IMG/VR virus record: IMGVR_UViG_3300048134_000195 | Coordinates: 1 to 47,049 of that record | Source: a virus | DNA: 47,049 nucleotides | Reading direction: 5' to 3' (one strand) | Part shown: positions 6,325 through 47,049 of the stretch, one piece after another | Numbering within the stretch: position 1 is the first letter of the stretch | Layout of the letters: each line of letters starts with the position of its first letter | Position numbers and translations under genes: made by a program | The notes under the pieces: generated by a model | What the model was told of the DNA's origin: nothing | The model's input: the letters and a program-made list of their open reading frames with translations, nothing else | Databases searched by the model: none

Positions 6325-6540
6325 CGCCCAGTGTGGGCGTCGAGGCGAGGGACTGTATCGAGCAAGGAACGTCTCCGGCTGTCGATAGGGACCAACGACG
6401 GCATACACGTCGGCCGCCCCACGTGGGGAGACTGCCTCGTGGATAACACGAGTCCTCCCCATGTGGGGGCGGCCATTTGCGTCTGTTCTCCCAGCCTCGC
6501 CCCCACCCAGGGTGGGCGTCGACGTCACGGTCGAGCGAGG
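6325..6540. repeat. Cluster of GC-rich palindromes and direct repeats in a non-coding gap
   Basis: cgcccagtgtgggcg at 6325-6339. Composite hairpin at 6412-6474. cgcccccacccagggtgggcg at 6498-6518. Direct repeat gtgggcgtcga at 6333-6343 and 6512-6522. Confidence 0.8.
6412..6474. repeat. Long composite hairpin: 19-bp outer stem (one bulge, one G-T) enclosing a 6-bp stem with a GATAA loop
   Basis: ggccgccccacgtggggag (6412-6430) pairs with ctccccatgtgggggcggcc (6455-6474). Inner stem is ctcgtg (6436-6441) with cacgag (6447-6452). Confidence 0.8.
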
Positions 6541-27162: not shown

Positions 27163-28434
27163 ATGAGTGATTCAGACTTCGGCATTCAGGACGACGGATC
27201 GTTCCAGCGAAAGCACGTCGACGACATCCGCAGCGACCAACACCAGAACTTCAAGAACGAGGTTGGCGAGGACGTCGAACTCCGAGAGTCATCGCCACAG
27301 CAGCAACTACTCGACGCGAACGCAATCGAAATCGCACGGCTGTGGGAGGCCGTCGAGTCGATGTACTACGCGTCGTTCTTCGAGGATTCGTTCGGCGAGC
27401 AACTGGACAAGCAGCTGGCGCTGGCCGGGTTCAGTCGTATCCCGGCGCGGTCCGCGACCGGCGAGGTCGTCTTCTCCCGTGGTGATGCGGCGCCGGACGA
27501 CATCACAATCCCGTCGGGGACGGTGGTGACGACGCCGCGGACGGAGACGATGCCAGCCATCCCCTTCGAGACCACCGAGGGCGTCATCCTCGCACAGGGG
27601 GCGACGGAGGTGACGGCGCCGGTGGAGGCGTTGAAGCCGTGGAAGACGGACCTGAACGAGGAGTTGCTGGGCGAGGAGACGAACGTCGGCGCGAACACCA
27701 TCACGAAGTTCGACAGCCCCGTCGCCGGCGTCGACGCCGTGACGAACCCCGACCCGACCGGCGACGAATCTCTCGGGTACGTCAGCGGCCGTAACCGCGA
27801 GACGGACGCCGAGTTCAAACTCCGCTACCAGAACTCCCTCGCCGGCGGAGGGTCGGCGACACTCCAGGCTGTCCGTGCGGGCGTGTTCAACGCCAGCGAC
27901 GAGATTCGGTCGGTCGGCGTCGAGGAAGTCCGCGACCCCAACACGGGCTACGGCGTGCGGGTGACGGTGCTCGCGCCGGGCGTCCCCGCGGACACGGTCG
28001 CGCAAGCCATCGTCGATTCCCGTGCTGGCGGCCTCGAATCCTTCGGGGCTGAATCGGGAACTGGCACGCTCGATGACGGCACGGAGAAGACCGAGTCGTT
28101 CGACCGCGCCAGCGAGGTCACGGTCTACGTCGAGGCGAGCCTGACGACGTCCGAGACGTTCCCCGAGGATGGCGAGCAGCGCATCACTGACCGCCTCACG
28201 CGGTACATCGGCGGGACCGCGTCGGATGGCATCGCGTATCCGGGCCTCGAAATCGGCGAGGACGTCATTTACGATCAGGTGTTCCGGCGCGTGATGGAGG
28301 TCCAGGGCGTAATCATGGCGGACGTCCAGATCGGGACGGACCCAGCGGCGCTTGGTGAGAGCAACGTCGCGATCAACGAGGGGCAGGCGGCGATGACCGG
28401 CACGAGCGAGGTGACGATCAGTGTTGTCGAATGA
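27163..28434 (+). CDS. Baseplate J-like protein (423 aa)
   Basis: Track ORF. ATGEVVFSRG..DITIPSGTVVTT. Size and order fit. Confidence 0.7.
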   Translation: MSDSDFGIQDDGSFQRKHVDDIRSDQHQNFKNEVGEDVELRESSPQQQLLDANAIEIARLWEAVESMYYASFFEDSFGEQLDKQLALAGFSRIPARSATGEVVFSRGDAAPDDITIPSGTVVTTPRTETMPAIPFETTEGVILAQGATEVTAPVEALKPWKTDLNEELLGEETNVGANTITKFDSPVAGVDAVTNPDPTGDESLGYVSGRNRETDAEFKLRYQNSLAGGGSATLQAVRAGVFNASDEIRSVGVEEVRDPNTGYGVRVTVLAPGVPADTVAQAIVDSRAGGLESFGAESGTGTLDDGTEKTESFDRASEVTVYVEASLTTSETFPEDGEQRITDRLTRYIGGTASDGIAYPGLEIGEDVIYDQVFRRVMEVQGVIMADVQIGTDPAALGESNVAINEGQAAMTGTSEVTISVVE

Positions 28435-29050
28435 TGAGTCGCCACGGGAGCGCCTGGAGGCGTCGATCAACTCGCCGTACGATACGGACGGCGTGGTGTG
28501 GAACGCGCTGCTGGCGGCGTGCGCCAGCGAGTACGCGGAACTGGAGACGGCGCTGCGGGCGGTGCTGGCAGCGAAGTCCGTCACGAGTGCGTCCGGCCAG
28601 CAGCTCGACCAACTCGCGACGATCTTCGAGCTCGAGCGGCGGACAGGCGAGCCGGACGCGAAGTTCCGGCTGCGCATTCAGACGGCGCTGCGGCGACTCA
28701 TCTCCTCGGGGACCATCGACGAGATTCGGGAGACAATCGCGGTGCTGTTGGAGACGTCGCAGTCGGAGGTACTCGTCGACGAGCCGTACGACGTCGAGCC
28801 GGCGCGCGTAGACTTGGGAATTTGGGTGTCCGAACTCTCGGATGCCGGGTTCACGCTCGACGAGTTCGCGGACATCGCGAACGATCTGACGGCGGGCGGT
28901 GTCGGCGTGGCGGTGTTCGCTCGCGGGACGTTCCAGTTCACGAGCGAGAACTCGACGGTCAATAGCGACCGTGGGTTTGCGGAGTTGAACAGCGACAACA
29001 CGGGCCCCGTTGAGGGGACTGGCGGTACGTGGCCGAAGATCCTGCGGTAA
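28421..29050 (+). CDS. Baseplate/tail protein I-like (Mu gp48-like, 209 aa)
   Basis: Track ORF (GTG start, 14-nt overlap with J). Position after J. Confidence 0.55.
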   Translation: MLSNDESPRERLEASINSPYDTDGVVWNALLAACASEYAELETALRAVLAAKSVTSASGQQLDQLATIFELERRTGEPDAKFRLRIQTALRRLISSGTIDEIRETIAVLLETSQSEVLVDEPYDVEPARVDLGIWVSELSDAGFTLDEFADIANDLTAGGVGVAVFARGTFQFTSENSTVNSDRGFAELNSDNTGPVEGTGGTWPKILR

Positions 29051-29060
29051 CTCACAATTC

Positions 29061-29831
29061 ATGGTGGATAAAAATAGTCGCACCTGGGGAGACTCGGGTA
29101 CAGAACCGGCAGCTGGTGAAGAGGTCATCTCGGGCGGAGCAGAGTACCCCGCGGACTGGATGAACTGGGCGATGTGGGCGATGACGACCGACATCGACGC
29201 GCTCGTCAGCGTCGTCGGGTCGCTCGAAGCCGTCAACGGCGTCACCGAAGTGCGGTATGAGGCGCTGGCGGACCGGCCAGCGGCGGGGCAGGCGGGCCGG
29301 TTCAGCATTCTTTCGGACGAGCAGCGCGTGACTATCGACGATGGACAGCAGTGGGTGACGGTCGGTGCGCACTCCCACGACGACCTCACGGACATCTCGG
29401 AGGGCGACCATCGGTCGGCCGAGCAGGTCCGGGATCTCGCCGGCGGCATGGCGGGGACCGCGCTCGCGCACGACGATGCGAATGACGCGCTGAACGTGGT
29501 TCAGGAGGACGTCGAGGATTGGGTTGCTGGCCTTGTGGCTGGGAAGTCAAATATCTCGGTGACGTACGACGACGGGAACGATGCGTTGTACGTTGATACG
29601 TCGGCGTTGAACGAGGAGGAGGTTGAGGATGCGATTGCTGGGCTGCTGTCCTCGAGTGATAACGTGGGGTGGAACTACGACGACGCAGGGGACACGTTGA
29701 CGGTGTCGCTGTCGGGCCCGATTACGGGCGTGCAGATTGGGACGGACGCCACACGGGCGGACGTGTTCGCGGATTCTGCAGATGCGAACTCAGTTAGCAC
29801 AGATGAGATCGTTCTCGAGGATACGCTATGA
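29061..29831 (+). CDS. Tail fibre protein, conserved proximal part with three internal repeats (256 aa)
   Basis: ATG 29061 lies inside track ORF 29010..29831, and the upstream gene ends at 29050. Repeats are HDDANDALNV, YDDGNDALYV and YDDAGDTLTV. Confidence 0.6.
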   Translation: MVDKNSRTWGDSGTEPAAGEEVISGGAEYPADWMNWAMWAMTTDIDALVSVVGSLEAVNGVTEVRYEALADRPAAGQAGRFSILSDEQRVTIDDGQQWVTVGAHSHDDLTDISEGDHRSAEQVRDLAGGMAGTALAHDDANDALNVVQEDVEDWVAGLVAGKSNISVTYDDGNDALYVDTSALNEEEVEDAIAGLLSSSDNVGWNYDDAGDTLTVSLSGPITGVQIGTDATRADVFADSADANSVSTDEIVLEDTL

Positions 29832-29845
29832 TAACAACACCGCTG

Positions 29846-29851
29846 TTTATA
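29846..29851 (+). promoter_or_regulatory. TTTATA box about 25 nt upstream of ATG 29875
   Basis: gctgtttatacgtgg lies in the 43-nt gap after the tail fibre stop. The spacing fits a leaderless archaeal transcript. Confidence 0.45.
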
Positions 29852-29874
29852 CGTGGCCTAGATGATGATTGGGC

Positions 29875-30135
29875 ATGCGACCGCCGGCCAAACTATCCCG
29901 ACGACAGTTACTGGCCACCGCAACTGCGTCCCTGGCCCCAATTACAGGCTGTTCCAGAAACGGCAGTTCGCCGACATCGGCAGAGACGCCAACTGACTCG
30001 GCTGATACCCTCGTTATCGAGACAAAGGAGACTCACACAGCAACTGGAGAGCAGTCCTACACAGCAGTCGAATGGCATGACGAAGGAGCCCTCGTCGTGG
30101 AGCAGAGCGGAAGTTTAGAACTTACTGAGCAATAA
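29875..30135 (+). CDS. Secreted Tat lipoprotein (86 aa precursor)
   Basis: MRPPAKLSRRQLLATATASLAPITGC has a twin-arginine motif, a hydrophobic core and a lipobox ITG/C. The track lists 29869..30135 with a TTG start. Confidence 0.65.
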   Translation: MRPPAKLSRRQLLATATASLAPITGCSRNGSSPTSAETPTDSADTLVIETKETHTATGEQSYTAVEWHDEGALVVEQSGSLELTEQ

Positions 30136-30136
30136 C

Positions 30137-31267
30137 ATGGCTAAGATTAAACTCATCAACGAGAACGGCGTCATCAAAGGTATCGACCCAGAAACGGGTG
30201 AAGAGGTTCCGGTGGAGTTCGAGGACCTAGAGACTCAATCGGTAAGTACAGAGGAAGCACTAATCGGGAAAACCAATCCCTATCAATACGTCTCCGAGAG
30301 CCACACCACAGTTACTGTTCCCGGAGATTACGATACAATCCAAGAAGCAATCGACGACTGTCCGAAGAATCTCCGCCACGAGTACGTCATTGACGTTGAT
30401 AACGGGGCTTACGACGAGGACTTGGTATTCAGAGGCATCGCGAATCAAGGATATACGGGTGCGGAGGCATCGACCGGCGGGATTGGCACTGATGGAGAAC
30501 ACGGGATCATCCAGATAGTGGGCGACACTACAACGCCATCGAACGTCAAAATAAATTCGGTGACGGCGATCGGATGCACGGGCGTCCAAGCGCCCACCTT
30601 ATGGGGCGTGGAACTCAACGGCGCAAGCCCGCATGTTGACGAGGACACGACCGCGGTCTTCTCAGGGTGTCAACAAGCGTTTCTCGGGGATTGTAACTTC
30701 CGAGGAGGTGCAAATAAAGCGGTTACTGCATATGGCGGCAACCTCCATGTTCGCAATATGGATGTTGGGGCTGATAACTACGATATCGCGCTATATGCAA
30801 AGCGACAGGCCGCAATCCACGAGCGTAACACTTCAGGATCCGTGACGGATAGAGGATACGTCGCCTCTGACGCTTCTTCAATCCATTCTCAGCATGATAG
30901 TAACATTAGTTCTCCCAATCGCAAATATGACCCGGTGAGTGGCTCCTATACGGTTATAGGGCCGCAGGGAATCAACTTCCAAAATGTCCAACTTCTCGGG
31001 GATGCAGGTGGACTAGAAATAAACGACAGGGTGGGGAGTGTCCCGTTCATTCTCCGAGACCTAGAGAACGGTGTGGAACGGTTCCGTGCCGAAGGCAAGG
31101 GGTACGGCAACTCCCACATTGAAAACCTGTCGGGACAGACTGGCGACTTCGACGGGCAGGTGCGGCTTGATGATGGTTCTAACACTCCACACCGAGGCGT
31201 TGAATGTGTCTGGGACGATGTGAATGGTGTTTGGGTTGACCAGACGGACGGCAGTACCTTCACCTAA
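30137..31267 (+). CDS. Right-handed beta-helix (pectate-lyase-like) protein, probable receptor-binding tailspike or depolymerase (376 aa)
   Basis: Track ORF. Repetitive G/N/T/V-rich short-strand pattern (VTAIGCTGVQ, FSGCQQAFLGDCNFRGGANKAVTAYGGNLHVRNMDVG). About 47-50% G+C. Confidence 0.6.
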   Translation: MAKIKLINENGVIKGIDPETGEEVPVEFEDLETQSVSTEEALIGKTNPYQYVSESHTTVTVPGDYDTIQEAIDDCPKNLRHEYVIDVDNGAYDEDLVFRGIANQGYTGAEASTGGIGTDGEHGIIQIVGDTTTPSNVKINSVTAIGCTGVQAPTLWGVELNGASPHVDEDTTAVFSGCQQAFLGDCNFRGGANKAVTAYGGNLHVRNMDVGADNYDIALYAKRQAAIHERNTSGSVTDRGYVASDASSIHSQHDSNISSPNRKYDPVSGSYTVIGPQGINFQNVQLLGDAGGLEINDRVGSVPFILRDLENGVERFRAEGKGYGNSHIENLSGQTGDFDGQVRLDDGSNTPHRGVECVWDDVNGVWVDQTDGSTFT

Positions 31268-31335
31268 TCAGTCCTGATTCTCTTTTAGCGGGTGTCTCAC
31301 CGCCAGCATCCTGAAAGAAACACCCGGCGCCGAGG

Positions 31336-32175
31336 TTAGTGCCGGAGTTGCTGGAGGGCGTCCTCCAGGCGCTCCGGACTCTCCTCGATGTACGCAATCG
31401 CCGTGCTGAACTGACTCCACCCGAATAGGGCTTTCAAATCCATCGCCGAGAGACCACGGGCGGCGTAGTAGCTGGCGGCCGTCGCCCGCAGCGCGTGCGG
31501 GTAGATCTCGTCGACGTCGACGGACTCGGTCTGCCGAGCCATCCGGTCGACGCGCCGGTTCACGACACCACGAGACGCTTCGAATTCATCGTAGTGCGTG
31601 AAGTAGTCCTCAACGGCGAGCGCTGCCCGCGTACTGGCTTCCGCGTACGGGATCTTCCTCGCAGCGTTCACCGTCTTCGGCGACCACATCTGCGCGTAGA
31701 ATGGCTCCGCGTCGACGAATAACTCGTAGACGTGGCCGCCGGGCTCGAGGACGTCGTGCCGCCCCAGGCTCTGGTAGTGGTCGTCGAGCGTGTTTGCCGT
31801 GCGGATGTCCGCCATCTGCTCGGCGGCACCACGGCAGTGCCCACAGATGTCTCGCGTTCGCCCGTCGGTACAGGGTTCGTGTTTCGGGATTTCGATGCGT
31901 TCGTCCTCCCAGTTGACCCAGTCCGCTTTCATGTGCGCGACCTCACCAGGTCGCATGCCGAGGCGGCCGCACGCGAAGAGGACGAGCCGGCACTCCCGAG
32001 CGAAGTAATCATCGTCCATCCGGTAGGTCGCCTGCACCATCTGCTCGAACTGGCGTTCGGTGATGGCGTCCTCCTTGGTGTGACGGACGGCATCGTCGCT
32101 TGCCCAGTCCTTTCCGTGGTCGTCGCCGGTGACGGGCTTACGGCCACGCGGCCGCTGCTGGTCCGACGAGCTCAC
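31336..32175 (-). CDS. int: Tyrosine recombinase / integrase (279 aa) with a Cys-containing insertion
   Basis: Track ORF. Motifs GMRPGE (Arg), HALRATAASY (HxxR) and GWSQFSTAIAYI (Tyr). Insertion is CTDGRTRDICGHC. Confidence 0.85.
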   Translation of the reverse strand: MSSSDQQRPRGRKPVTGDDHGKDWASDDAVRHTKEDAITERQFEQMVQATYRMDDDYFARECRLVLFACGRLGMRPGEVAHMKADWVNWEDERIEIPKHEPCTDGRTRDICGHCRGAAEQMADIRTANTLDDHYQSLGRHDVLEPGGHVYELFVDAEPFYAQMWSPKTVNAARKIPYAEASTRAALAVEDYFTHYDEFEASRGVVNRRVDRMARQTESVDVDEIYPHALRATAASYYAARGLSAMDLKALFGWSQFSTAIAYIEESPERLEDALQQLRH

Positions 32176-32831
32176 GGCTCGCCCGCCTCCATGATCGCTT
32201 CCAGGTATGCGAGGACGTCCGCGACCTCGCCGAGCAGCGGCAGCGGCTCGAGTGTCGACGCGCGCCCCAGCGTCCGGTAGTCGACGAGTCCAGCAGCATC
32301 CAGCCGCGGGACGTGTGTTTCGTGGAGCGCGACGTAGAGACTCTTGACGGCCTCTGTTCCGGGCCGGGTGTCGTGTGTTCTGAGGGTGCCGGTGTCGATG
32401 CCGTGCGCGAGCTCGGGCGTGGTGACGAAGCCGCGTTCGTCGACGTCGGGCTGCCAGTCGTCGAGGACGCGGATGGCAGCGCGCCGCCGGTCGTTCGCGA
32501 GGACGTCCAGGAGCTCGTCGAGCGTGATCTCGAGGCGGGCGCTGTCGGGCGTAGGTGGCCGGCGGCCACTGCCATCAGCGACAGCACTCCCAGTGCCGTC
32601 AGCCGTGGTTTGGTGGACGTAGACGTGCTGGAGGCCGGCGTCGGCGGTGATCTCGCCGCGATCCTCGAGGCGCTGCAGGAGCGCCTGGAGGTGGCTGCGG
32701 GTGATGCTGAATCGGAGTGCGAGCCCCTCGATGGTGGCCGGGTCGTCGAGCCAGTCGAGGTACTCAAGGACTTGCTGTGGGGTTGGTTCGCTAGCGTTAC
32801 CACTCTCTACTGGTATGTTTTCGTGGTCCAT
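32172..32831 (-). CDS. wHTH DNA-binding protein (219 aa)
   Basis: Track ORF with ATGA overlap onto int. LEYLDWLDDPATIEGLALRFSITRSHLQALLQRLEDRGEI and a second HTH-like half. Confidence 0.6.
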   Translation of the reverse strand: MDHENIPVESGNASEPTPQQVLEYLDWLDDPATIEGLALRFSITRSHLQALLQRLEDRGEITADAGLQHVYVHQTTADGTGSAVADGSGRRPPTPDSARLEITLDELLDVLANDRRRAAIRVLDDWQPDVDERGFVTTPELAHGIDTGTLRTHDTRPGTEAVKSLYVALHETHVPRLDAAGLVDYRTLGRASTLEPLPLLGEVADVLAYLEAIMEAGEP

Positions 32832-32945: not shown

Positions 32946-33950
32946 TCAGTCTGCGGCGTCGCTGCGATGCCAGCCCCACGCAATCGGGGCGGCCATCGCG
33001 ACCGTCGCGACCGGCAGCATCGTCGACGCGCCCAGACTCGGGACGGACCCCGCGATGCCAGCAGCTGCCAGCCCCACAACAGCCCCATACTTCCCCGCCT
33101 TCACTGCCGTCTTCGACTCCGCAGGCGTGAACCGGCCAATCGTTCGGTCACCATTCTCGACGTCCTGGACGTCGTCAGCGAGCGTTTCCACGCGGGCGGC
33201 CATCTGGTCAGCGCCGAGCGCGGACAGCTCTGCAGCGGCGCCCATCGGCGTCGAGGAACTGATCTTTGCGTAGACGTCGTCGGCCGGTGTGGTGTCGGTA
33301 TCCCAGTTGGCACCGTCGAGGAGATCGGCGTCGGCGAAGTCCTGGATGATTTGGTCGTCCGAGGAGATTGCAAGATAGTTTTTCATCGTCGCGTAGTCTT
33401 CCCAGCCGCCGACGGCCATGACGGTCTCCATATTCATGTCGTGGCGGACGAGACAGTTGGTGGCAAAGTATCGGCGGAGGTCGTGTGGCGAGAAGTAGCG
33501 CTCGTAGTCGACGTCGCCTGTTTGTTCGGTGACGAGCGTCCCGATTTTATACGCCCAGTCGTTCATCGTTCTCGAACTGATGCCGACGAGCGGTTCGTCA
33601 TCGGGGATGTGTGTTTCTTCGCGGATTGTTTCGATGCAGTCGATGGTTGCTCGAGTGAGTGGGACTTTGCGATATTTTCCGTTTTCTGTTTTGCCGGTGG
33701 TGTCTTTCCCCCAGACTTCTGCGAATTTGATGTCGGTGTCGAGGTTGGTGTTGACGATGTCGTTGTAGGTGAGGTCGACCATGCCGTCCTTGCGGAGGCC
33801 GCGGCCGCCGAGGCGGGCGAAGAGTTCGGCTTGTTTTGGGTGGCCGTGAATCGAGATTGTTGATGCGATGTCGACGATGAGTTCGAATTCTTCTTGGGTG
33901 GGGAAGAGCGCAGCTTCGTCTTCGTTTTCGAGTTGGCGTTTAGTGGCCAT
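32946..33950 (-). CDS. Second tyrosine recombinase (334 aa) with a ~130-aa C-terminal extension ending in two hydrophobic segments
   Basis: Track ORF. Motifs GGRGLRKDG, HDLRRYFATN and GGWEDYATMKNYL. Tail contains YGAVVGLAAAGIAGSVPSLG and STMLPVATVAMAAPIAWGW. Confidence 0.75.
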   Translation of the reverse strand: MATKRQLENEDEAALFPTQEEFELIVDIASTISIHGHPKQAELFARLGGRGLRKDGMVDLTYNDIVNTNLDTDIKFAEVWGKDTTGKTENGKYRKVPLTRATIDCIETIREETHIPDDEPLVGISSRTMNDWAYKIGTLVTEQTGDVDYERYFSPHDLRRYFATNCLVRHDMNMETVMAVGGWEDYATMKNYLAISSDDQIIQDFADADLLDGANWDTDTTPADDVYAKISSSTPMGAAAELSALGADQMAARVETLADDVQDVENGDRTIGRFTPAESKTAVKAGKYGAVVGLAAAGIAGSVPSLGASTMLPVATVAMAAPIAWGWHRSDAAD

Positions 33951-34022
33951 GGTGTATCCTCGTGTTTTTGTCTGTCTGTTGACTGTTGTGCATGGGTGTG
34001 GTAACGGACGCGTGATTTATAA

Positions 34023-34100
34023 GTCTATTTCGAAAATTCAGACTTCCTCGCTAACCCCGTACTCAGAAACCCTACGTTACTCATAAACCCCTTCCCCAAA
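34023..34100. repeat. Near-palindrome aagtct-atttcgaaaatt-cagactt followed by three AACCC(C)-containing tandem units
   Basis: aagtctatttcgaaaattcagactt at 34021-34045. aaccccgtactcag / aaaccctacgttactcat / aaaccccttcccc at 34053-34095. Confidence 0.6.
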
Positions 34101-34185
34101 CAATCCAGACACATCAAGAAAACACACAACACTACGCACGCGTCCAGTAAACGTATCCACCCCACCAACCAACCAACCTACGACC

Positions 34186-34434
34186 ATGCCCTCGACCAGC
34201 ACCGAAGACCGCATCCTCAGAACAGTCGACGCCCAGACCAGCCCCGCCCAGCCCGACACCGTCCGCCCGGGGACGATCGTGCTGACGCTCGCCGGCAACG
34301 GCTCGATGAACCCCGGCGACGTCCGCCAGGGGATGCAGTCGGCTGTCGACGCCGGTCGACTCGAGCACACCGAGGAGGGGCGTCTTCGCGTTGCGGATGG
34401 CGTCGACGTGCCGGTCCCGGGGAAACCCGCGTGA
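34186..34434 (+). CDS. Hypothetical small protein (82 aa)
   Basis: Track ORF. Acidic/neutral composition, and the only plausible frame in this gap. Confidence 0.45.
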   Translation: MPSTSTEDRILRTVDAQTSPAQPDTVRPGTIVLTLAGNGSMNPGDVRQGMQSAVDAGRLEHTEEGRLRVADGVDVPVPGKPA

Positions 34435-34688: not shown

Positions 34689-35081
34689 TCACTCAATCGC
34701 GTAGCCCCATCCCCGCAGGACCTCCGCAATCTCGTCGTCGTGCTCGAGGCCGACCAGCAGCGCAGCCTCGCGCAAGTCCGCCTTCTTCACAGACTCGCCG
34801 AGCAACTGCTCGACGTCACTCTTCCCGGCGCGTTCAGCGTCCACAGTATCGGCTTGTAGATGGAGTTGCACCGTCTTCTCACGCCCGTCCGTAATGCTAT
34901 TTCGGCGATGAATCCATGGCAGCCGCGTCGTCGTGTCACCGCCAGCATCCTGCACCGACCCACCCGTCGACTCAGGAGTCTGGTCGCGGTCGACGTCGCG
35001 ACGATCGTCGGCGTCCTCTTCCTCCTCAAAACTATCATCATCCCAGTCGTCGTCCGCAGCGCCGCTCTTGAATCCAGCCAT
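34689..35081 (-). CDS. Acidic protein with a C-terminal RHH-like domain, ParG-like partner of ParA (130 aa)
   Basis: Track ORF with ATGA overlap onto parA. C-terminus is ..LPWIHRRNS..VQLHLQ..ADLREAALLVGLEH..LRGWGYAIE. Confidence 0.55.
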   Translation of the reverse strand: MAGFKSGAADDDWDDDSFEEEEDADDRRDVDRDQTPESTGGSVQDAGGDTTTRLPWIHRRNSITDGREKTVQLHLQADTVDAERAGKSDVEQLLGESVKKADLREAALLVGLEHDDEIAEVLRGWGYAIE

Positions 35082-35968
35082 CAGGCGGTCACCTCGGTTT
35101 CATCCTCGTCGTCGAGCGCACCGGGCTCAGGCGGGGATGGTGCCTCAATCCCGCCAACGCGCTCGATGAACCGCGCGATTTCGTCGAACTGCGCGAGCGT
35201 ATCCACTTCGTAGTCCCGGCGCCGGTCGCGGTGTTCACGAACGTACTGATACGCCGAGCACTGTTGCCGCCAGCACCCCTCCAGCAGGGCCGTCCGGTCC
35301 CCGATCACCGCGGGGACGTCGTACGGGATCTCCTTGAGGAGGTCCTGCTGATCGCTCGTTCCCTTGACCCCGACGGGGACGGCGCCGAGGACACCGACGT
35401 CGATGTTCAATTCGTCCGCGAAGTTCCGCGCGAGGTCCTCCAGCCCCTCAACTGCTGCTTGTCCTTTCGCGCTCGGTTCGACTGGGAGGAGGAGGTTTCG
35501 CGTGGCGTAGATCGCGTTGTAGAGGTGTGCCCCCTCCGTTGCGGGCGGGTCGACGATGACGACGTCGTACTCGCTGGGGACGTCGGCTTCTTGGAGGACG
35601 CGCCGGAGCTGGGCGTGGACGTTGTATGCTTCGCCGAAGTCCTCTGCTTTCTGCTTCTCGCGGCGGAGGTGGTCTTCGAGGTCCGACAGCGCGTTGTGCT
35701 CGGGGACAATGTCGACGCCCTCGGCGGTCCGAATGAGGTCGTGGAACGGACCGCGTGGTGAGTCGACCATGTGGCGGACGATGTTGTCGGCTGAGGAGTT
35801 CTCGCGGTCGTCGTCGACGTCGAAGAGGCGGCTGAGGTTTCCGTCCTGGGGGTCGAGCGGAACCACGAGGACGTCGAGGCCGGCTCGGCGATGCGCGACG
35901 GCGAGGTTCGCAGTAAGCGTCGTTTTGCCGACGCCACCTGCCTCCGAGTACACGGTGTACGCGAGCAT
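35081..35968 (-). CDS. parA: ParA/Soj-type partition ATPase (295 aa)
   Basis: Track ORF. Deviant Walker A VYSEAGGVGKTTLTANLA and Walker B-like YDVVIVDPPA. Confidence 0.85.
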   Translation of the reverse strand: MLAYTVYSEAGGVGKTTLTANLAVAHRRAGLDVLVVPLDPQDGNLSRLFDVDDDRENSSADNIVRHMVDSPRGPFHDLIRTAEGVDIVPEHNALSDLEDHLRREKQKAEDFGEAYNVHAQLRRVLQEADVPSEYDVVIVDPPATEGAHLYNAIYATRNLLLPVEPSAKGQAAVEGLEDLARNFADELNIDVGVLGAVPVGVKGTSDQQDLLKEIPYDVPAVIGDRTALLEGCWRQQCSAYQYVREHRDRRRDYEVDTLAQFDEIARFIERVGGIEAPSPPEPGALDDEDETEVTA

Positions 35969-36003
35969 AGTCGTAGCTGTGTCTCTGAGGTAATGAATCT
36001 ACG

Positions 36004-36019
36004 TCAGACACTTGTCTGA
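36004..36019. promoter_or_regulatory. Palindromic operator candidate TCAGACA-CT-TGTCTGA upstream of parA
   Basis: 7-bp arms about 35-50 nt upstream of the parA ATG (35968). Contains CACTTGTCT, which is also at 37957-37965. Confidence 0.45.
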
Positions 36020-36074
36020 GAACGATAGATGAGTGAGATATCTTAGTAAGAAGTCTATCTAAGACGCCTAAGAT

Positions 36075-36854
36075 TCAATTCTGAGACTCTGATTCTGGCT
36101 GGTATCCCCACTGAACAAGCTGATCTACGACAAGTCCGGGACGTTCTATTGCCGCGAGGATGGCAGCTTCCCGAAGATCTGCGCGATAAACATCTTCATT
36201 CAGTTGGGTTTCGATCTGGTTCTGGAATTCCACGAATTTGCGCGCGGTTTCGTCTTGGAGGTGCAGTTGCTTCGTGACACTCCGATCCGTGACAGGGGAC
36301 TCACGCTGATAGATCCAAGGGAGTGAGACGTCTTCGGTGGTCGTCTCGTGTTTGTCATCTGGGTCGCCCGTCGCGTAGCTGACGAGTTCCTCCCAGTGTT
36401 CGGTAAGGCCAGTCAGGCCGATCCGGCTGAGATTTCCATCGATTACATCAAAGCTAAACTCGCCAGTGGCGTGAGTGGTGGCGCCGATGACGGGGCCGTA
36501 TCCAGATGCGTTGTCAAGTAGCGACTCGTTTTCGTCGAACAGATAGTCCGCAGCGACAAGGATTGGGTGGCAGTCTGCAGCTGCGTAGTCTCGGAGTTGC
36601 GATGCCGCTCCGATGGAGTCCGCGAGCGTCGTCTTCACCTCGAACGCGTATTTCGCAGAGGGCTCAACGCTGAACTCGTTTTCTTTCATCAGCATTACGT
36701 CGGCTCGGCGCTCCCTGCCGTCGACGGTGACCGGCTTCTCTTCGTGGACAACGACGTCGGTCGCACTATCCTGGAACTGGTTGGTGTACTCGCTAAGCGT
36801 ATGCAGAAGTGCTCGTTTCAGGACGTCGTGGTCCATTGTATCGAGGTCACCCAT
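36075..36854 (-). CDS. PD-(D/E)xK-like nuclease domain fused to a C-terminal RHH-like domain (259 aa)
   Basis: Track ORF. Candidate catalytic residues in RRADVMLM and YAFEVKT. The C-terminal ~75 aa are alignable with the C-terminus of 34689..35081. Confidence 0.55.
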   Translation of the reverse strand: MGDLDTMDHDVLKRALLHTLSEYTNQFQDSATDVVVHEEKPVTVDGRERRADVMLMKENEFSVEPSAKYAFEVKTTLADSIGAASQLRDYAAADCHPILVAADYLFDENESLLDNASGYGPVIGATTHATGEFSFDVIDGNLSRIGLTGLTEHWEELVSYATGDPDDKHETTTEDVSLPWIYQRESPVTDRSVTKQLHLQDETARKFVEFQNQIETQLNEDVYRADLREAAILAAIERPGLVVDQLVQWGYQPESESQN

Positions 36855-37470
36855 CGAGGAGTTCCTCCCGCGCCTCCTGGACGCGCTGGTACTCGGCCTC
36901 GTCCCCGCCCTGGTCGGGATGCGTCTCCTTCACGCGCTCCCGATACGCCGCCCGAATCTTCTCGGGACTGGCGTCGCGATCGACACCGAGGATAGTGTGG
37001 GCGGGGGGCTCGCCGGCGACGACTGCGTCGGTGTCCCCGTCGGCAGGTGGGAGGCGTGCGTTTGCGAACTCTGACTCTCCGGTCGCGACGGGACGATTCT
37101 CCATCCGGCGCTTCTCACGAAGGTACAGTCCGGCCTGCCGGACATTATCGCGGAGCCGGGTGTGAGTGTCGCAGGCGACGGCGTAGTCGGCGTCGTCCAT
37201 TCGCCAGCGCAGCACGAACCCAGGGTCATCTGGGTTCGCACGGGCGTATGGTCGCTGGTCGGTTTTGCGCTGCTGGGCGTCGAACTCGTAGCGGTATCTG
37301 TCCGCGCCGATGCGCTCGAGCTCCTTCTCCAAGTCGTCGAAGGCGTCCGAGAGAGACACCGAGAAATTGTTGTTCGGTTCTCGGTGCTCTGCGCTCGTTC
37401 GGTCAAAGCCGGCTGGCCAGTCGATACGCGAGTTCGAACGGGTAGATGAGGTCGTTGAGTTACTCGCCAT
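36847..37470 (-). CDS. J-domain (DnaJ-like) protein (207 aa)
   Basis: Internal ATG 37470 of track ORF 36847..37578. C-terminal ILGVDRDASPEKIRAAYRERVKETHPDQGGDEAEYQRVQEAREELL contains the HPD motif. Confidence 0.8.
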   Translation of the reverse strand: MASNSTTSSTRSNSRIDWPAGFDRTSAEHREPNNNFSVSLSDAFDDLEKELERIGADRYRYEFDAQQRKTDQRPYARANPDDPGFVLRWRMDDADYAVACDTHTRLRDNVRQAGLYLREKRRMENRPVATGESEFANARLPPADGDTDAVVAGEPPAHTILGVDRDASPEKIRAAYRERVKETHPDQGGDEAEYQRVQEAREELLDG

Positions 37471-37945
37471 CGAGGATCTCCTCCATGCGGTCGAGGGCGT
37501 CCTCGAGGTTGTCTCGGTTGAGGTTCTTCTCCGCACGCTGGGCGTCCGCGAGCGCGTCCCGCAGCTCATCAACGTCAATGCTCTGTGATTCGGCTTCGTG
37601 GAGTTCGCGTTCGAGGCGTTGCTTTTCGACGCGGAGCTCTTCGAGCTCGTCGCGTGCCTGCTCGAGTTTGTGCTCGAGCGCGTCGGCGTCGGCGTCGTCG
37701 GTGGTGCCGAGGTCGAGGCGGTCGCGTTGTTCGCTGGGGATGTTCTCGGGTTGGAGTTCGTAGACGCCGCGGCCGACGTTGGTGACGTAGTCGGCGCTCT
37801 CCATCTGTTGGAGGCGTTGGGTGATCCACTGGCGTGAGACGTCGAGTTGTTCGGCGAGGTTTGAGGGGACGTTGCGGCCGGTGGCGAGCGTTTCGAGGAT
37901 GCGCTCGTCGATGTCTTTCAGCTCGTGTGCCATTTGCTGGTGCAT
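37460..37945 (-). CDS. wHTH plus coiled-coil protein, repressor-like (161 aa)
   Basis: Track ORF. ERILETLATGRNVPSNLAEQLDVSRQWITQRLQQMESADYV is followed by heptad-rich LEQARDELEELRVEKQRLERELHEAE. Confidence 0.7.
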   Translation of the reverse strand: MHQQMAHELKDIDERILETLATGRNVPSNLAEQLDVSRQWITQRLQQMESADYVTNVGRGVYELQPENIPSEQRDRLDLGTTDDADADALEHKLEQARDELEELRVEKQRLERELHEAESQSIDVDELRDALADAQRAEKNLNRDNLEDALDRMEEILDGE

Positions 37946-38132
37946 GGATTCATCGCCACTTGTCTATTGTCATCGACACCGTAAATAGTTGACCACTGTC
38001 CGGTACAATACACTTGACAACAGTAAACTATAAGGGCATACGGCGTGTACCCTGAAGTAGAGCCCGAGGGACGCCACACGAGAGAAAGTGGCCGCGTGCC
38101 ATAACACGCGACCTCGGGTCACCGAACGACCC
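37946..38132. promoter_or_regulatory. Divergent promoter/operator (switch-like) region between the minus-strand island and the rightward early operon
   Basis: Low-G+C gap. TATA-like taaatag (37982-37988) and actataag (38027-38034). CACTTGTC-type motifs at 37957, 37993 and 38011. Confidence 0.55.
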
Positions 38133-39796: not shown

Positions 39797-40816
39797 ATGT
39801 ACGCTCGGTATCACGTCTTCGATGAAGGCTGGGTGCCCGAGGACCTCCATGCCCGCAACGGCGAGCTGCAAGCGCTCGCCGACGCCCTCGACGACCTCGC
39901 GCGTGGGTCCCGTGCGCCTAACCCCGTCCTCCTCAGCGGGCCGCCCGGCGCCGGGAAAACCGCGTCATCCCGGTACGTCCTCGACGATCTCGAAGACTCC
40001 ACGACAGTCCACACGGCGTTAGTCGACGCCTGGACGAACCACAAGCCCTACCAGACGTACGGCGCGCTCCTCCAGGAGCTCGGGAAGGCTGGCGTCGTCC
40101 AACCCCAGACCCCGCACAGCGCCCTCCGTGATCGTGTCCGCGACGCCACCCCAGACGGCGGCGTCGTTGTCGTGCTTGACGAGGCCGACCAGCTTGACGA
40201 CCCACAGATCCTGCGTGACCTCGACGCGATGGCTGGTGTTGCGGTGGTCGCAATCGTCAACGACGAGGCCGGGTTCCGCGACCGGCTCGACCGCAAATCC
40301 GCCGGCGTCGAGTTCCGCGAGTCAGTCCCGTTCGGCCCCTACAGTGAGGGAGAGTTAGTGGATATCCTGCAGCCGCGTGCAAGCCGTGGGCTGCGCCTGG
40401 GGTACCGGCGGACGAACGCCCTCGAGGCAGTTGCCGCGCGCGCCAACGGGAACGCACGGGTTGCCATCCAGGGGCTGCGGGCAGCTGCCGAGCACGCGCA
40501 CGAGTCGAATCGTAGCGAGATCCGCATCTGGGACGTCGAGGCTGGGATTGATACGGCGGTCGAGCAGATCCGCCGGAAGACCCGGTCGCGGTTGCAGCGC
40601 CACGAACGCGTCGTCCTGGAGGTGGTTGAGGATCTTGAGCCGGCGCGGAAAAGCGCGGTCTACGAGGAGTACGCGAATCGGGTTGGGGAGGAGGCGCGGA
40701 GTCAGCGCCGTGTTGAGGATTATCTCTCGAAGTTGACGTCGTATAATCTGCTTGTGGCTGAGGGGGAGACGCGCGCTCGTCGATACGCGGTTGCTGGCGA
40801 GGCGGCGACGGCGTAA
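39797..40816 (+). CDS. orc1: Orc1/Cdc6 replication initiator (339 aa)
   Basis: Track ORF. Walker A LLSGPPGAGKTASS, Walker B VVVLDEADQL and a C-terminal winged helix. Confidence 0.9.
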   Translation: MYARYHVFDEGWVPEDLHARNGELQALADALDDLARGSRAPNPVLLSGPPGAGKTASSRYVLDDLEDSTTVHTALVDAWTNHKPYQTYGALLQELGKAGVVQPQTPHSALRDRVRDATPDGGVVVVLDEADQLDDPQILRDLDAMAGVAVVAIVNDEAGFRDRLDRKSAGVEFRESVPFGPYSEGELVDILQPRASRGLRLGYRRTNALEAVAARANGNARVAIQGLRAAAEHAHESNRSEIRIWDVEAGIDTAVEQIRRKTRSRLQRHERVVLEVVEDLEPARKSAVYEEYANRVGEEARSQRRVEDYLSKLTSYNLLVAEGETRARRYAVAGEAATA

Positions 40817-40824
40817 CACCAGGG

Positions 40825-40845
40825 TGTTTTCTCGAAATTTCTCCC
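40825..40845 (+). promoter_or_regulatory. ORB-like element tgttttctcgaaatttctccc (copy 2, downstream of orc1/cdc6)
   Basis: Same orientation as copy 1, 16/21 identity. Confidence 0.4.
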
Positions 40846-40849
40846 TTCG

Positions 40850-40859
40850 GTTAAGTAAC
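40850..40859 (+). promoter_or_regulatory. TATA-like promoter element GTTAAGTAAC (copy 2)
   Basis: Identical to 5313..5322 and centred about 28 nt upstream of ATG 40882. Confidence 0.5.
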
Positions 40860-40881
40860 CAGTCCTCGTCGGTAGTCGTGT

Positions 40882-41109
40882 ATGCCGACACTTGAGACGC
40901 GAGCCGGCGAGGTGTCAGTGACCGAGCTGCGGTCGGTCGAGCGCGGCGGCCGTGTGGCTGTCGAGCAGGGCAGCCGGAAGTGGCACGTCGACGTCCTCGA
41001 ATCTGGGGAAGTACAGTTGGTGGCGTCCTGGGAGAATGGAGAGTTAGCGGACGTCGAGTTGCCCGGGGCGGTCAAGGAGCGGCTCGGGGAGTACGCAACG
41101 AGGGTCTGA
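40882..41109 (+). CDS. Hypothetical small protein (75 aa)
   Basis: Track ORF. Confidence 0.5.
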   Translation: MPTLETRAGEVSVTELRSVERGGRVAVEQGSRKWHVDVLESGEVQLVASWENGELADVELPGAVKERLGEYATRV

Positions 41110-41121
41110 TGATGGGGTTAG

Positions 41122-41292
41122 CTACTCGCCGTCGTCCTCGTCGTAGGCCTCGTGGTAGGGCGTCTTCGTCTTGTAGCCGCAGCTCGGGCAAGTTGCCTTC
41201 CAGCTGTCGCCGGTGTAGTTCCAGGTGTGGCCGCAGCGGCCACACTCAACCTCGACGTCTTCGGATTCCTCGTCTGGGGAGTCGTCGGTCAT
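41122..41292 (-). CDS. Zn-ribbon protein (56 aa), paralogue of 41414..41575
   Basis: Not in the track. MTDDSPDEESEDVEVECGRCGHTWNYTGDSWKATCPSCGYKTKTPYHEAYDEDDGE*. Confidence 0.65.
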   Translation of the reverse strand: MTDDSPDEESEDVEVECGRCGHTWNYTGDSWKATCPSCGYKTKTPYHEAYDEDDGE

Positions 41293-41304
41293 GGCTACCA
41301 AATG

Positions 41305-41424
41305 CTACCACCACCACTAACTTAAGGGTCACCCCATGCAGAGGCGGATGTGCGGATTCTACTACTACTACCACCACCACATTTATATCACGACACACCC
41401 ATGAACAGTATAGGTGGTAGTAGT
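41305..41424. promoter_or_regulatory. Operator-like repeats between the divergent Zn-ribbon genes
   Basis: Identical 13-mer ctaccaccaccac at 41305-41317 and 41368-41380. 12-bp perfect inverted repeat actactaccacc (41364-41375) / ggtggtagtagt (41413-41424) brackets tttatat (41382-41388). Confidence 0.65.
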
Positions 41425-41575
41425 GGCGGAAAACACAAATCAAACACCTTCAGAAACGATCGAAGTCACCTGTCAAAACTGCGGGTACGAGTGGACGTAC
41501 TCCGGAGATCTCCAGATGGTGACCTGTCCGAGTTGCCAGCGGAAAACTCCGGCAGAACCTGACGACGAAGAATAG
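41414..41575 (+). CDS. Zn-ribbon protein (53 aa, GTG start; alternative GTG 41423), paralogue of 41122..41292
   Basis: Not in the track. ..AENTNQTPSETIEVTCQNCGYEWTYSGDLQMVTCPSCQRKTPAEPDDEE*. Shares C-x2-CG[YH]-x-W-x-Y[ST]GD-x5-TCPSC with the paralogue. Confidence 0.6.
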   Translation: MVVVAENTNQTPSETIEVTCQNCGYEWTYSGDLQMVTCPSCQRKTPAEPDDEE

Positions 41576-41689
41576 CCGCCCCTTTCGCACACCCACGAAC
41601 CCGGCTCCTGGCAGAGTAGAGGTTCGCGGGCGTGCGGGGGTGGCGTCGGTGTACCGTACGCGATCAAGCAGCGATACAGATCCGAAGCC

Positions 41690-41875
41690 ATGCTAAATAA
41701 GCAACTCACGGAAGATAACGATTCTGGCACCGCCCGAGCAGCATCAACACTCAAACAAGACACGAGCGCGCCGTTCACCTGCACCCGCGACGACTGTCCT
41801 GCAGTCCTCCCAACCGAGGGCGCACGCCGTAGTCACATAGAACGCGACCACGACGACACGGAGCGTGATGCGTGA
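41690..41875 (+). CDS. C2H2 zinc-finger protein (61 aa)
   Basis: Track ORF. FTCTRDDCPAVLPTEGARRSHIERDH fits C-x4-C-x12-H-x4-H. Confidence 0.65.
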   Translation: MLNKQLTEDNDSGTARAASTLKQDTSAPFTCTRDDCPAVLPTEGARRSHIERDHDDTERDA

Positions 41876-42024
41876 TGTCGGATAGTGAGGCGTTCCGCGA
41901 TCAGGTGAACTCCGCGCTGGAAGCTGCCGTCGCCGGCGACCGCGACCTCGACGACATCGAAACCGTCCTCCAGGACGGCTTGGACCGCGTGCAGGAGATC
42001 CGCGCCATCCGGGGTGAGAACTGA
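41875..42024 (+). CDS. Hypothetical small protein (49 aa)
   Basis: Not in the track. ATGA overlaps at both ends. MSDSEAFRDQVNSALEAAVAGDRDLDDIETVLQDGLDRVQEIRAIRGEN*. Confidence 0.5.
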   Translation: MSDSEAFRDQVNSALEAAVAGDRDLDDIETVLQDGLDRVQEIRAIRGEN

Positions 42025-45985: not shown

Positions 45986-47049
45986 CCACACTCCTCTCGA
46001 CTGGCTCGTCCCGTCCGATGAGTGGGACCGGTTCTGCCGCTTCGTCGAGGGAGAGGACGGGAGTCTCGACGGCTATCTCGGCGATGCAGCGGAACAGGCG
46101 ATGGCCGAGTACGCTCATGTCGACGAGTACGCCGGCATCGAGGAGCGGGTCGACAAGCTCGTCACGGCTGCCGGTCGCCGTCCCGAGGACGGTTTCAAAG
46201 AAAAAAATTCGGGGTTGCTGGAGGACTGGGCAGACGCGGACAAGACTCGCGTCACCGTCAAAGTCGAGCGTGAAGTGAAGGCGAAGTTCCGCGAAGTCGC
46301 GAGTGACAGCGACCACGCGTTCGGCGTGGAATTCGCGCGCGCCATTCGCACGTACCGCGACGGCGGTCGTCGCGACCGTGTCGAACGGAAGCTCGACCGC
46401 ATCCTTGACGACGCCGAACGCCTCCTCAGCGACCTGCAGCCCGACGACGAGGAGACCGAGGGTTCCTCAGAGTCGCTGTCGTTGGCGGAGCGGAAGACCA
46501 TCGCCGTCTGCGACGAGCTCGGCGAGCAGTTCACCGATGACGAACTGGTCGACGCCATCGAGCGTGTCGCCGAGGTCTCCAGCGAACCCTCGATCGAGAA
46601 GTACCGCGGGCTGGTCGTTGACCGACTCGGGATGGAGCGTCACCCAGGCGAACCGCATCTGTGGGTTCCCCATGATGTCGTGGACCAGCTCGCACCTGGC
46701 CAGCCTCGCGTAATCCGGCAGTCAGTCGAACGCCTCGATCGCGAGGAACGCGTTCGCCGCGTTCAACTGGCAGTCGGTCGTGCTGCCGCTGAACGCGACT
46801 CTGACATCGTCCGCGTGCAGACACCCGTAATTCAGGAAGAAGTCCTCGGCGGCGAAGTCACGCGGTCGAGCACGTTGAGTCTGATGCGCGCGGCGCAGTT
46901 GTCCGCGGGCATCGAGGTTGATGACGACTCCTCGCCCGCAGCGCTTGTCGTTGACGTCCAGATGATCGAAGAGGTGGATTCCGAATTGGCAGCGACGATA
47001 CTCAGGTACCACGATAAGGCCGAGGAGGGCTTGCTCGGGTCGCCGACGT
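45978..47049 (+). CDS. 5' part of the junction-spanning gene (409 aa in total on the circular map: 45978..46922 then 1..285)
   Basis: Manual codon-by-codon reading shows ATG 45978 and no stop up to the window end. The frame continues at position 1. It is absent from the ORF track because it has no stop in the window. Contains an RHH-like KTRVTVKVEREVKAKFREV segment. Confidence 0.75.
   Translation, partial: MYDHTPLDWLVPSDEWDRFCRFVEGEDGSLDGYLGDAAEQAMAEYAHVDEYAGIEERVDKLVTAAGRRPEDGFKEKNSGLLEDWADADKTRVTVKVEREVKAKFREVASDSDHAFGVEFARAIRTYRDGGRRDRVERKLDRILDDAERLLSDLQPDDEETEGSSESLSLAERKTIAVCDELGEQFTDDELVDAIERVAEVSSEPSIEKYRGLVVDRLGMERHPGEPHLWVPHDVVDQLAPGQPRVIRQSVERLDREERVRRVQLAVGRAAAERDSDIVRVQTPVIQEEVLGGEVTRSSTLSLMRAAQLSAGIEVDDDSSPAALVVDVQMIEEVDSELAATILRYHDKAEEGLLGSPT
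46193..46210. repeat. 18-bp AT-rich inverted repeat, right arm (tttcaaagaaaaaaattc), inside the junction-spanning gene
   Basis: Perfect reverse complement of 45734..45751. Encodes ..GFKEKNSG... Confidence 0.95.
46923..47049. repeat. Terminal direct repeat copy 2 (127 bp, identical to 1..127)
   Basis: Same comparison. The preceding bases ..gaggttgat have no counterpart because the window starts at the repeat. Confidence 0.97.

Follow-up and report, generated by a model that had tools for sequence, protein, structure and literature searches.

A putative lipoprotein and a probable detachable fibre tip as a possible docking pair in a phiH-like Halobacterium provirus

Several described systems bear on the gene pair presented here, which lies behind the tail genes of a plasmid-like temperate myovirus, a phiH-like Halobacterium provirus. 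The DNA analysed is IMG/VR record IMGVR_UViG_3300048134_000195; the whole stretch of 47,049 nucleotides is referred to as the window. Gene 1 encodes a putative lipoprotein of 86 residues and gene 2 a protein of 376 residues with a predicted beta-helix body, both within a block of low guanine plus cytosine (G+C) content at positions 29832-31335. T5 Llp and the Cor proteins of phi80 and N15 block FhuA, the receptor of their own phage. Llp, Cor and Ltp are known examples of small phage lipoproteins giving protection against superinfection. The present pair resembles Llp and Cor in that a small lipoprotein of viral origin stands beside a receptor-binding gene, with exclusion and protection of progeny as a plausible pay-off. 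It differs from them in having no sequence relation, in a signal of the twin-arginine translocation (Tat) type where theirs are Sec signals, and in a haloarchaeal host that has no outer membrane; furthermore, gene 1 stays constant while the body beside it changes, and it is linked to a module of a viral protein rather than to a receptor.

Modular tailspikes, such as CBA120 TSP1-4 and the depolymerases of Klebsiella phages, combine a conserved N-terminal anchor with an exchangeable enzymatic body. Gene 2 has in common with them a short conserved N-terminal module (the N-module), an interchangeable beta-helix or other body, and recombination at the joint; in the present case, however, the partner is a predicted exported lipoprotein and not a virion adaptor, and the unit also occurs in cellular glycosylation islands. 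HybOC and DmsAB are Tat 'hitchhiker' complexes, and so is PaoABC of E. coli (for PaoABC see below). The likeness lies in a twin-arginine signal on one partner only and in partners that are co-encoded and translationally coupled; those complexes are bacterial redox enzymes, whereas here the partners would be a signal-bearing 60-aa lipoprotein and a fibre- or tailspike-like cargo. The related viruses phiH and phiCh1 have a fibre module inverted by Int1 (PMC6471424). The invertible module of phiH, phiCh1 and ChaoS9 shares with the present locus the virus family, the tail genes, the N-terminal fibre repeats, an adjacent Int1 homologue and a variable distal fibre end; it differs in that here inverted copies and repeats are absent, the body of a separate gene is replaced, and a lipoprotein and a candidate docking module are added.

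A literature search turned up no account of archaeal tail-fibre modules that include a lipoprotein, and gene 1 and the N-module occur in no isolated virus of the phage collection. Receptor-binding proteins that combine a beta-helix body with exchangeable modules are familiar; docking and display of such a protein would be categorically new if confirmed. We propose, with a rough probability of 45%, that the two genes encode a docking pair, in which the lipoprotein would anchor part of a detachable receptor-binding protein on the cell surface and the rest would be mounted on virions.

The exchangeable body and the split fibre

The unit that is exchanged was located by comparison of the window with its two H. 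salinarum relatives, L011 and L012 (the latter from strain KBTZ03, CP146628.1). In blastn alignments, homology with L012 ends at 30251 and that with L011 at 30259, and it resumes at 31266/31275, at the stop codon of gene 2. Both relatives share with the window the stub of the tail fibre, the spacer, gene 1 in full length and, in gene 2, the first 38-41 codons. Three unrelated bodies are found at the same place, namely the beta-helix of the window, a GINT1_N-like domain with a C1q/BclA-like head, and an unassigned fold. Because homology brackets the body on both sides, the exchangeable unit is the body of gene 2 (30252-31265, + strand), which is replaced by unrelated sequence in L011 and L012; the lipoprotein, by these alignments, belongs to the constant part and lies outside the swapped unit. 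A preliminary description of this DNA had seen in the locus a horizontally swapped cassette, and its character as a hot spot of cassette replacement is supported. It had also let the cassette start at 29831 and include the lipoprotein, which does not agree with breakpoints (30251/30259) that fall inside gene 2, and it had taken the lipoprotein to be cognate to the beta-helix, a view that the identical 86-aa protein in front of three unrelated bodies contradicts.

The gene upstream of the pair encodes a proximal tail-fibre 'stub' of 256 residues (29061-29831, + strand) and follows the genes for baseplate J (27163-28434) and a P2-gpI-like baseplate protein (28421-29050). Residues 1-249 form the constant part of the fibre, and residues 149-237 share 44% identity with the repeats at the N-terminus of PhiH1_165, the tail fibre of phiH. 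In two sister viruses from IMG/VR, which have the same baseplate genes and lack the gene pair, the fibre is a single chain of 610 residues (L031, 3485-5317) or 412 residues (L032, 6001-7239). Residues 1-249 of the stub are 96% (L031) and 77% (L032) identical to the first 249-250 residues of these chains; immediately past an SVST motif the chains differ both from the stub and from one another. The tail-fibre gene had earlier been said to stop at 29831; the stop codon is present, but it closes only the proximal part, since the sister fibres run on into a distal domain.

The SVST motif occurs twice in the window. The first copy, SVSTDE (29790-29807, + strand), is the last stretch in common with the fused fibres, and the second, SVSTEE (30239-30256, + strand), marks the joint at which the swapped body recombines on its left side. 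The DNA of the second copy, TCGGTAAGTACAGAGGAA, matches TCGGTAAGTACAAAAGAA at the junction of the L031 fibre and coincides with the breakpoint of the swap. With this hinge in common, the body of gene 2 occupies the place of the fused distal domain in the sister viruses. We regard gene 2 as probably being the detachable distal part of the tail fibre.

On the simplest reading, about 440 bp (29808-30250) would sit between the two hinge copies, and would consist of the peptide IVLEDTL with a stop codon, the promoter, gene 1 and the N-module. This stub tail (29808-29831, + strand) forms the left end of the inserted segment, is low in G+C and is absent from the fused fibres; it is a possible docking peptide. 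In a plasmid of Natrinema thermotolerans (L030), which has sipho-type tail genes, an unrelated protein ends with SEIVLEDTSTGS and is followed by a gene 1 homologue and then by an N-module beta-helix gene; this order of an EIVLEDT stub, lipoprotein and N-module beta-helix closes the tail module. Since an unrelated protein has the same ending in front of the gene pair, the stub tail seems to be part of the unit. The distal domains of the fused fibres are themselves low in G+C (52.9% in L031 and 46.4% in L032, with stubs of 63% and 59%), so that low G+C is a general property of exchangeable fibre tips in this virus group. These distal domains matched none of the bodies that follow N-modules in the loci compared; the sole matches, weak ones, were to the C-terminal domains of two beta-helix homologues.

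Gene 2 (30137-31267, + strand) begins one base after the stop codon of gene 1. Its N-module, of about 35 residues (residues 1-34, MAKIKLINENGVIKGIDPETGEEVPVEFEDLETQ; 30137-30238, + strand), is followed by a right-handed beta-helix resembling that of pectin methylesterases (about residues 45-300) and, at the C-terminus, by a tip module (residues 304-376; 31046-31264, + strand). The AlphaFold2 model is a right-handed parallel beta-helix with a predicted local distance difference test score (pLDDT) of 84, exceeding 90 in residues 50-250, and a predicted template modelling score of 0.75. The top structural matches in the PDB, weak at E ~1e-3, are all beta-helices (pectin methylesterases and tailspikes), the profile of the gene 2 family matches carrot pectin methylesterase 1gq8 (E = 1.3e-4), and matches of the body in BFVD reach E = 1e-16. 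Model, profile and fold matches thus agree with the beta-helix of the tailspike kind that had been recognized from the repetitive sequence. The pectin-methylesterase catalytic motifs (QD, DF) are not conserved, there being no conserved columns for them in the profile alignment to 1gq8; at the corresponding places the gene 2 family has C(Q/R/E/D)(Q/E).

The nearest viral models of the body are a protein of Halorubrum virus CGphi46 (HALG_00044) and gp29 of Haloarcula virus HSTV-1, which is annotated as 'virion component'. These are the closest viral matches both in structure and in sequence; they differ from gene 2 in having other N-terminal parts, no N-module and no lipoprotein gene upstream. 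Homologues of the body include phage tailspikes and proteins with BppU_N, Phage_depo_C, C1q or BclA_C domains. The tip module shares 70% identity with the end of P0005, a protein encoded directly after a baseplate J-like gene in the viral contig L010.

The lipoprotein and its partner module

Gene 1 (29875-30135, + strand) encodes a putative lipoprotein of the Tat type. The protein consists of a predicted signal peptide (residues 1-26, with the lipobox cysteine Cys26 encoded at 29950-29952), a spacer rich in Ser, Thr and Pro (residues 27-43) and a conserved C-terminal domain (residues 44-86; 30004-30132). The N-terminus, MRPPAKLSRRQLLATATASLAPITGC followed by S, has a twin arginine at residues 9-10, 15 uncharged residues, and then ITGC with Cys26 and a serine. 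The published TatLipo geometry separates the twin arginine from the cysteine by 12-21 residues, with an uncharged stretch before the lipobox, Gly or Ala at position -1 and no Asp or Cys after the cysteine (PMC2945643). Read against this geometry, the signal of gene 1 agrees with it, with Gly at -1 and Ser after the cysteine. The twin arginine, the hydrophobic stretch and a lipobox of the form (L/V/M/T)(A/T)GC are kept in nine homologues, and geometry and conservation together support the Tat lipoprotein signal proposed in the preliminary description. The lipobox cysteine varies in two cases: the homologue at 1805-2134 of L024 keeps the twin arginine and the hydrophobic helix without the cysteine, and its N-terminus is probably a signal anchor, and P0160 has a tryptophan in place of the cysteine. 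Among the homologues the spacer ranges from 17 to about 110 residues, and the C-terminal domain of about 40 residues follows the pattern ...LVIExGETHT...ESYxAIEW...GxLVLEDGAxLELTE.

The gene 1 protein is identical in the window, L011 and L012, the DNA differing by one synonymous change. At least ten diverged homologues have 34-48% identity with the same architecture and position. A word-indexed protein search returned gene 1 only as itself, and the homologues were found by reading the DNA upstream of gene 2 homologues, in L006, L007, L015, L016/17, L018 (Halolamina pelagica), L023, L024, L025, L027 (Haloarcula laminariae; twice) and L030; their alignment is too variable for a pattern scan. No Pfam family matched gene 1, PHROGs gave only a weak match to Rz-like spanins (E = 0.032), the 50,697 phage records searched with tblastn contained no match, and the matches of the gene 1 profile in the PDB are confined to signal-peptide regions. 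The likeness to Llp that had been suggested for gene 1 finds no counterpart in these comparisons, with no detectable relation to Llp, Cor, any Pfam family or any PHROG of exclusion proteins. The gene is unannotated in three public haloarchaeal records, L011 (9739-9999), L012 (9739-9999, equivalent to about 37794-38054 of CP146628.1) and L030 (8709-9014), and the copy in the window has been named 'nitrous oxide reductase' by JGI, presumably from its Tat signal.

The N-module of gene 2 is 91-95% identical among proteins with unrelated bodies, and its consensus at the gene start is M..IKL.NENG.IKG.D.ETGEEVP.EF. Gene 2 and all other N-module proteins begin with a charged, non-hydrophobic sequence and thus have no signal of their own. 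A profile search found the N-module in 14 genes for which upstream DNA was available, and the C-terminal domain of gene 1 directly precedes it in 12 of the 14. The stop codon of gene 1 overlaps the start of the N-module gene (mostly as ATGA) or abuts it, with at most 1 nt between them. Pairwise identities of the C-terminal domain and of the N-module are correlated (r = 0.73, Mantel p ~1e-4). The bodies behind the N-module vary from locus to locus and include pectin-methylesterase-like and pectate-lyase-like helices, YadA-head repeats, GINT1_N/C1q and unknown folds. Because the C-terminal domain and the N-module stay linked whatever body follows, the lipoprotein tracks the N-module and not the body.

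Among 155 homologues with the beta-helix domain, four or five (P0004, P0064, P0096, P0143) have a Tat-lipobox signal fused directly to it; these forms have neither the C-terminal domain of gene 1 nor a recognisable N-module. The occurrence of the domain on such a signal implies that the body can function outside the cell on a lipid anchor. The arrangement in two genes looks, from the order of its parts, like a non-covalent version of the fused form.

The pair also occurs in cellular surroundings. In Haloarcula laminariae it lies on the chromosome beside aglB and genes for sugar-nucleotide enzymes and glycosyltransferases, in L025 it lies beside a flippase and glycosyltransferase cluster, and sugar-modifying genes are its neighbours in L006, L008, L018 and L024. 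In these islands (L006, L008, L018, L024, L025 and Haloarcula laminariae) no similarity to the tail proteins of the window was found. Within the aglB island (L027, 5927-7132), the gene 1 C-terminal domain survives as a remnant (6417-6497) just ahead of a 210-aa N-module protein, and there is a further N-module remnant at 5927-5989; this degenerate unit suggests that such units form arrays that decay. Among 50,697 records of phages and archaeal viruses none matched the N-module, and a pattern scan of IMG/VR returned only a spurious match in a low-G+C bacterial phage. Scans of GTDB genomes gave one true locus and scans of metagenomes gave four.

Composition, promoter and genomic setting

The block at 29832-31335 has a G+C content of 53.3%, compared with 64.4% for the whole window and 65.6% for the 29.8 kb to its left, and is the lowest-G+C 1.5-kb stretch of the window, about 4 standard deviations under the mean. 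Third codon positions have a G+C fraction of 0.53 in gene 1, of 0.56 in gene 2 and of 0.76-0.85 in the neighbouring tail genes. These values bear out the compositionally foreign character ascribed to the block at the outset; the figure of 47-50% then given holds for the lowest sub-windows, being reached by only some 200-nt windows, and does not hold as an average. The drop in G+C starts at about 29770, about 60 nt ahead of the stop codon of the fibre gene, and matches the homology breakpoint at 29808. Other low-G+C patches (48-59%) are present in the non-structural arm, at 33500-34200, 36000-37000 and 40500-42000; the first of these includes a divergent intergenic region at about 33950-34100 with a TTTAWA hexamer at 34016.

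A predicted TATA box, TTTATA (29846-29851, + strand), begins 29 nt before the ATG at 29875, an arrangement that would give a leaderless transcript of gene 1 and gene 2. TTTAWA hexamers number four on the + strand of the window, TTTATA at 29846 among them, and none on the - strand. A TATA-like hexamer begins at -29 or -30 in four independent homologous loci (L006, L016, L018 and L008). The position of the hexamer and its conserved spacing support the prediction, made already in the preliminary description, that the block has its own leaderless promoter. To the right of the swap, the stretch at 31275-31325 (+ strand), in which L011 and L012 again match the window, is a conserved flank. It has an oligo-T run (31283-31286) together with an inverted repeat, GGGTGT...ACACCC, and probably acts as a terminator for the gene pair and for the convergent integrase gene alike. 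Three copies of a 17-nt sequence, TCTCACCGCCAGCATCC, differing by 0-3 mismatches, lie at 31295-31311, 34934-34950 and 35262-35278, the first of them inside this conserved flank; the sequence could be a site for a recombinase or a regulator, or recur by chance.

Beyond the gene pair lie, on the - strand, a gene for an Int1-like tyrosine recombinase (31336-32175), a DUF7344 helix-turn-helix gene (32172-32831) and a second, unrelated integrase gene (32946-33950). With the fibre invertase Int1 of phiH, ChaoS9 and phiCh1 the recombinase shares 35-36% identity (E ~1e-32 to 1e-35). A search for an inverted copy of the fibre gene and for long inverted repeats found neither, the longest inverted repeats near the locus being 34 nt at 76-82% identity; the Int1 homologue may serve here in integration or in cassette exchange, or may be a relic.

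The ends of the window carry an exact direct repeat of 127 nt (1-127 and 46923-47049), which indicates a circular element with a true length of 46,922 bp; it has genes for ParA and Orc1/Cdc6. Its tail genes are 67-72% identical in DNA to those of the Halobacterium and Natrialba myoviruses phiH, ChaoS9 and phiCh1, and the gene order from sheath to baseplate is the same. Near-identical elements are the 44.3-kb circular plasmid of H. salinarum KBTZ03 (pKBTZ03_443) and a 45.7-kb contig from another H. salinarum strain. A Logan contig of independent origin, from another sample, matches the window at 100% identity throughout 19875-40135, so that the junctions described above are not assembly artefacts. 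The JGI record Ga0494428_0000031 (L005) ends inside gene 2, at the equivalent of 31149 in the window, and seems to be stored rotated; the continuity of gene 2 across this point is confirmed by the same Logan contig. A search of the window against Rfam gave no match, and no tRNA genes were found in it.

Proposed docking and the alternatives

If the two genes form a docking pair, the C-terminal domain of gene 1 would bind the N-module of gene 2. In the cytoplasm the lipoprotein would pick up part of the fibre tip, already folded and without a signal of its own, and the complex would cross the Tat pore as a hitchhiker; joint export is suggested because the cargo has no signal and the Tat system moves folded proteins, and E. 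coli PaoABC is a complex of this kind (PMC4273604). A flexible Thr/Ser/Pro stalk would then hold the tip at the membrane's outer face, where the tip might occupy or cleave the glycan receptor, with superinfection exclusion and protection of released progeny as the result. The remaining gene 2 protein would be mounted on the stub of the virion as a receptor-binding tip, possibly through the IVLEDTL tail. As the anchor would recognise the constant module, any new body would be displayed automatically. Such docking would account for a promoter of its own, the coupled translation, a stalk that varies in length, an anchor that stays constant while tips are swapped, and the occurrence of the pair both in proviruses and in glycan islands. 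A more general form of the proposal, in which the Tat-exported lipoprotein is a generic dock for whichever tip the virus carries and cells have adopted the two-part system in their glycosylation islands, is put forward tentatively, and we would not expect it to hold in full. Tat-fimbriae ('tafi'), whose subunits each carry a Tat signal and assemble by donor-strand exchange (PMC11821415), are an analogy to the gene pair at most.

A number of observations weigh against docking, or against parts of it. The correlated divergence of the C-terminal domain and the N-module fits binding partners, but simple linkage of adjacent genes would give it too. The linkage itself has one exception, a metagenomic locus (L013, 8293-9693 and 10001-10747; also L014) in which two tandem N-module genes have no gene 1 within 10 kb. 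(The L013 pair encodes a NosD/beta-helix body and a 248-aa protein and has a chromosomal-looking context.) The similarity around EIVLEDT spans only seven residues, and a search of the rest of the virus for a further C-terminal domain like that of gene 1, or a further N-module, such as a dock on the virion might contain, found none. The pair in cellular islands has no virion, and its function there is possibly a purely cellular one at the surface. As to export, the Tat-signal profiles PF10518 and TIGR01409 do not match the gene 1 protein of the window and match only two or three of nine family members, weakly (best E = 0.002 and 0.029). The structure model of gene 1 alone has low confidence (pLDDT 59). 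Non-conservation of the catalytic motifs leaves enzymatic destruction of the receptor unproven. Finally, we know of no archaeal example of Tat export of a signal-less partner.

The alternative with the most in its favour is that the pair serves surface conversion only: a captured cellular lipid anchor and its cargo would remodel or bind S-layer glycans without entering the virion, and the stub would be the whole fibre. Of the informative non-viral contexts, most are indeed glycosylation or polysaccharide islands, and the N-module went unmatched among the phage and archaeal-virus records; the pair has its own promoter and a low G+C content, and its position between tail genes and integrases is like that of genes for lysogenic conversion. 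We nevertheless consider this alternative unlikely, as the body takes the exact place of a fused distal domain behind a common hinge and the fibre would otherwise have no distal domain, as the tail module of another, unrelated provirus ends in the same arrangement, and as body and tip are homologous to virion proteins. It is also conceivable that gene 2 is the detachable distal fibre and that gene 1 has a role unrelated to display, as a lysis or egress accessory or as a fibre assembly factor. The weak match to Rz-like spanins, the position at the end of the late operon and the translational coupling to the fibre tip could be read in this way; however, archaea have no outer membrane for a spanin to act on, an assembly chaperone would not need the conserved twin-arginine and lipobox export signal, and the same pair is found in cellular loci without any virion or lysis context, which together make such a role very doubtful.

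The mask originally envisaged, a lipoprotein like Llp or Cor that covers the receptor of a cognate beta-helix protein and travels with it as one host-range cassette, has in its support a small lipoprotein with its own promoter beside a receptor-binding gene, in keeping with the general logic of T5 Llp. Such a mask would have to suit three unrelated bodies in its identical form, and the swap leaves it out; its diverged homologues precede YadA-head, pectate-lyase-like, GINT1_N/C1q-like and unknown bodies, only about 40 residues of it are conserved, and these follow the N-module of the partner. With the missing similarity to known exclusion proteins added, we hold masking of this kind to be highly unlikely. 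A surface lipoprotein that protects from superinfection or loss of progeny is still a possible outcome, with anchoring of the receptor-binder likelier than masking of the receptor itself. That gene 1 is a chance open reading frame in an intergenic spacer might be thought from its atypical composition and from the missing PGAP call in two H. salinarum records. This reading, to which we give next to no weight, is refuted by the conservation of its homologues, at least ten of which, though diverged, keep architecture and position, and by the synonymous-only difference among close relatives.

Very little is known of how archaeal tailed viruses choose hosts, exclude competitors and avoid debris. 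The locus offers a testable module for these questions, with a split fibre, a swappable tip and a conserved lipoprotein partner, and cultivable hosts exist in H. salinarum KBTZ03 and Natrinema thermotolerans A29. Should docking fail, the locus would still be a clear natural case of fibre-tip exchange at a defined hinge. Should it hold, this would be a natural split-fibre system with two alternative docking sites, the virion stub or a membrane anchor, as well as the first described mechanism of superinfection exclusion for archaeal tailed viruses and the first case of Tat hitchhiking by a virus. It would also provide portable protein display on haloarchaeal surfaces. Masking or destruction of the receptor would update itself with each swap of the tip, so that the specificity of exclusion would follow a change of host range without a separate masking protein having to co-evolve, and the receptor-binding proteins of these viruses would be linked to proteins of cellular N-glycosylation islands.

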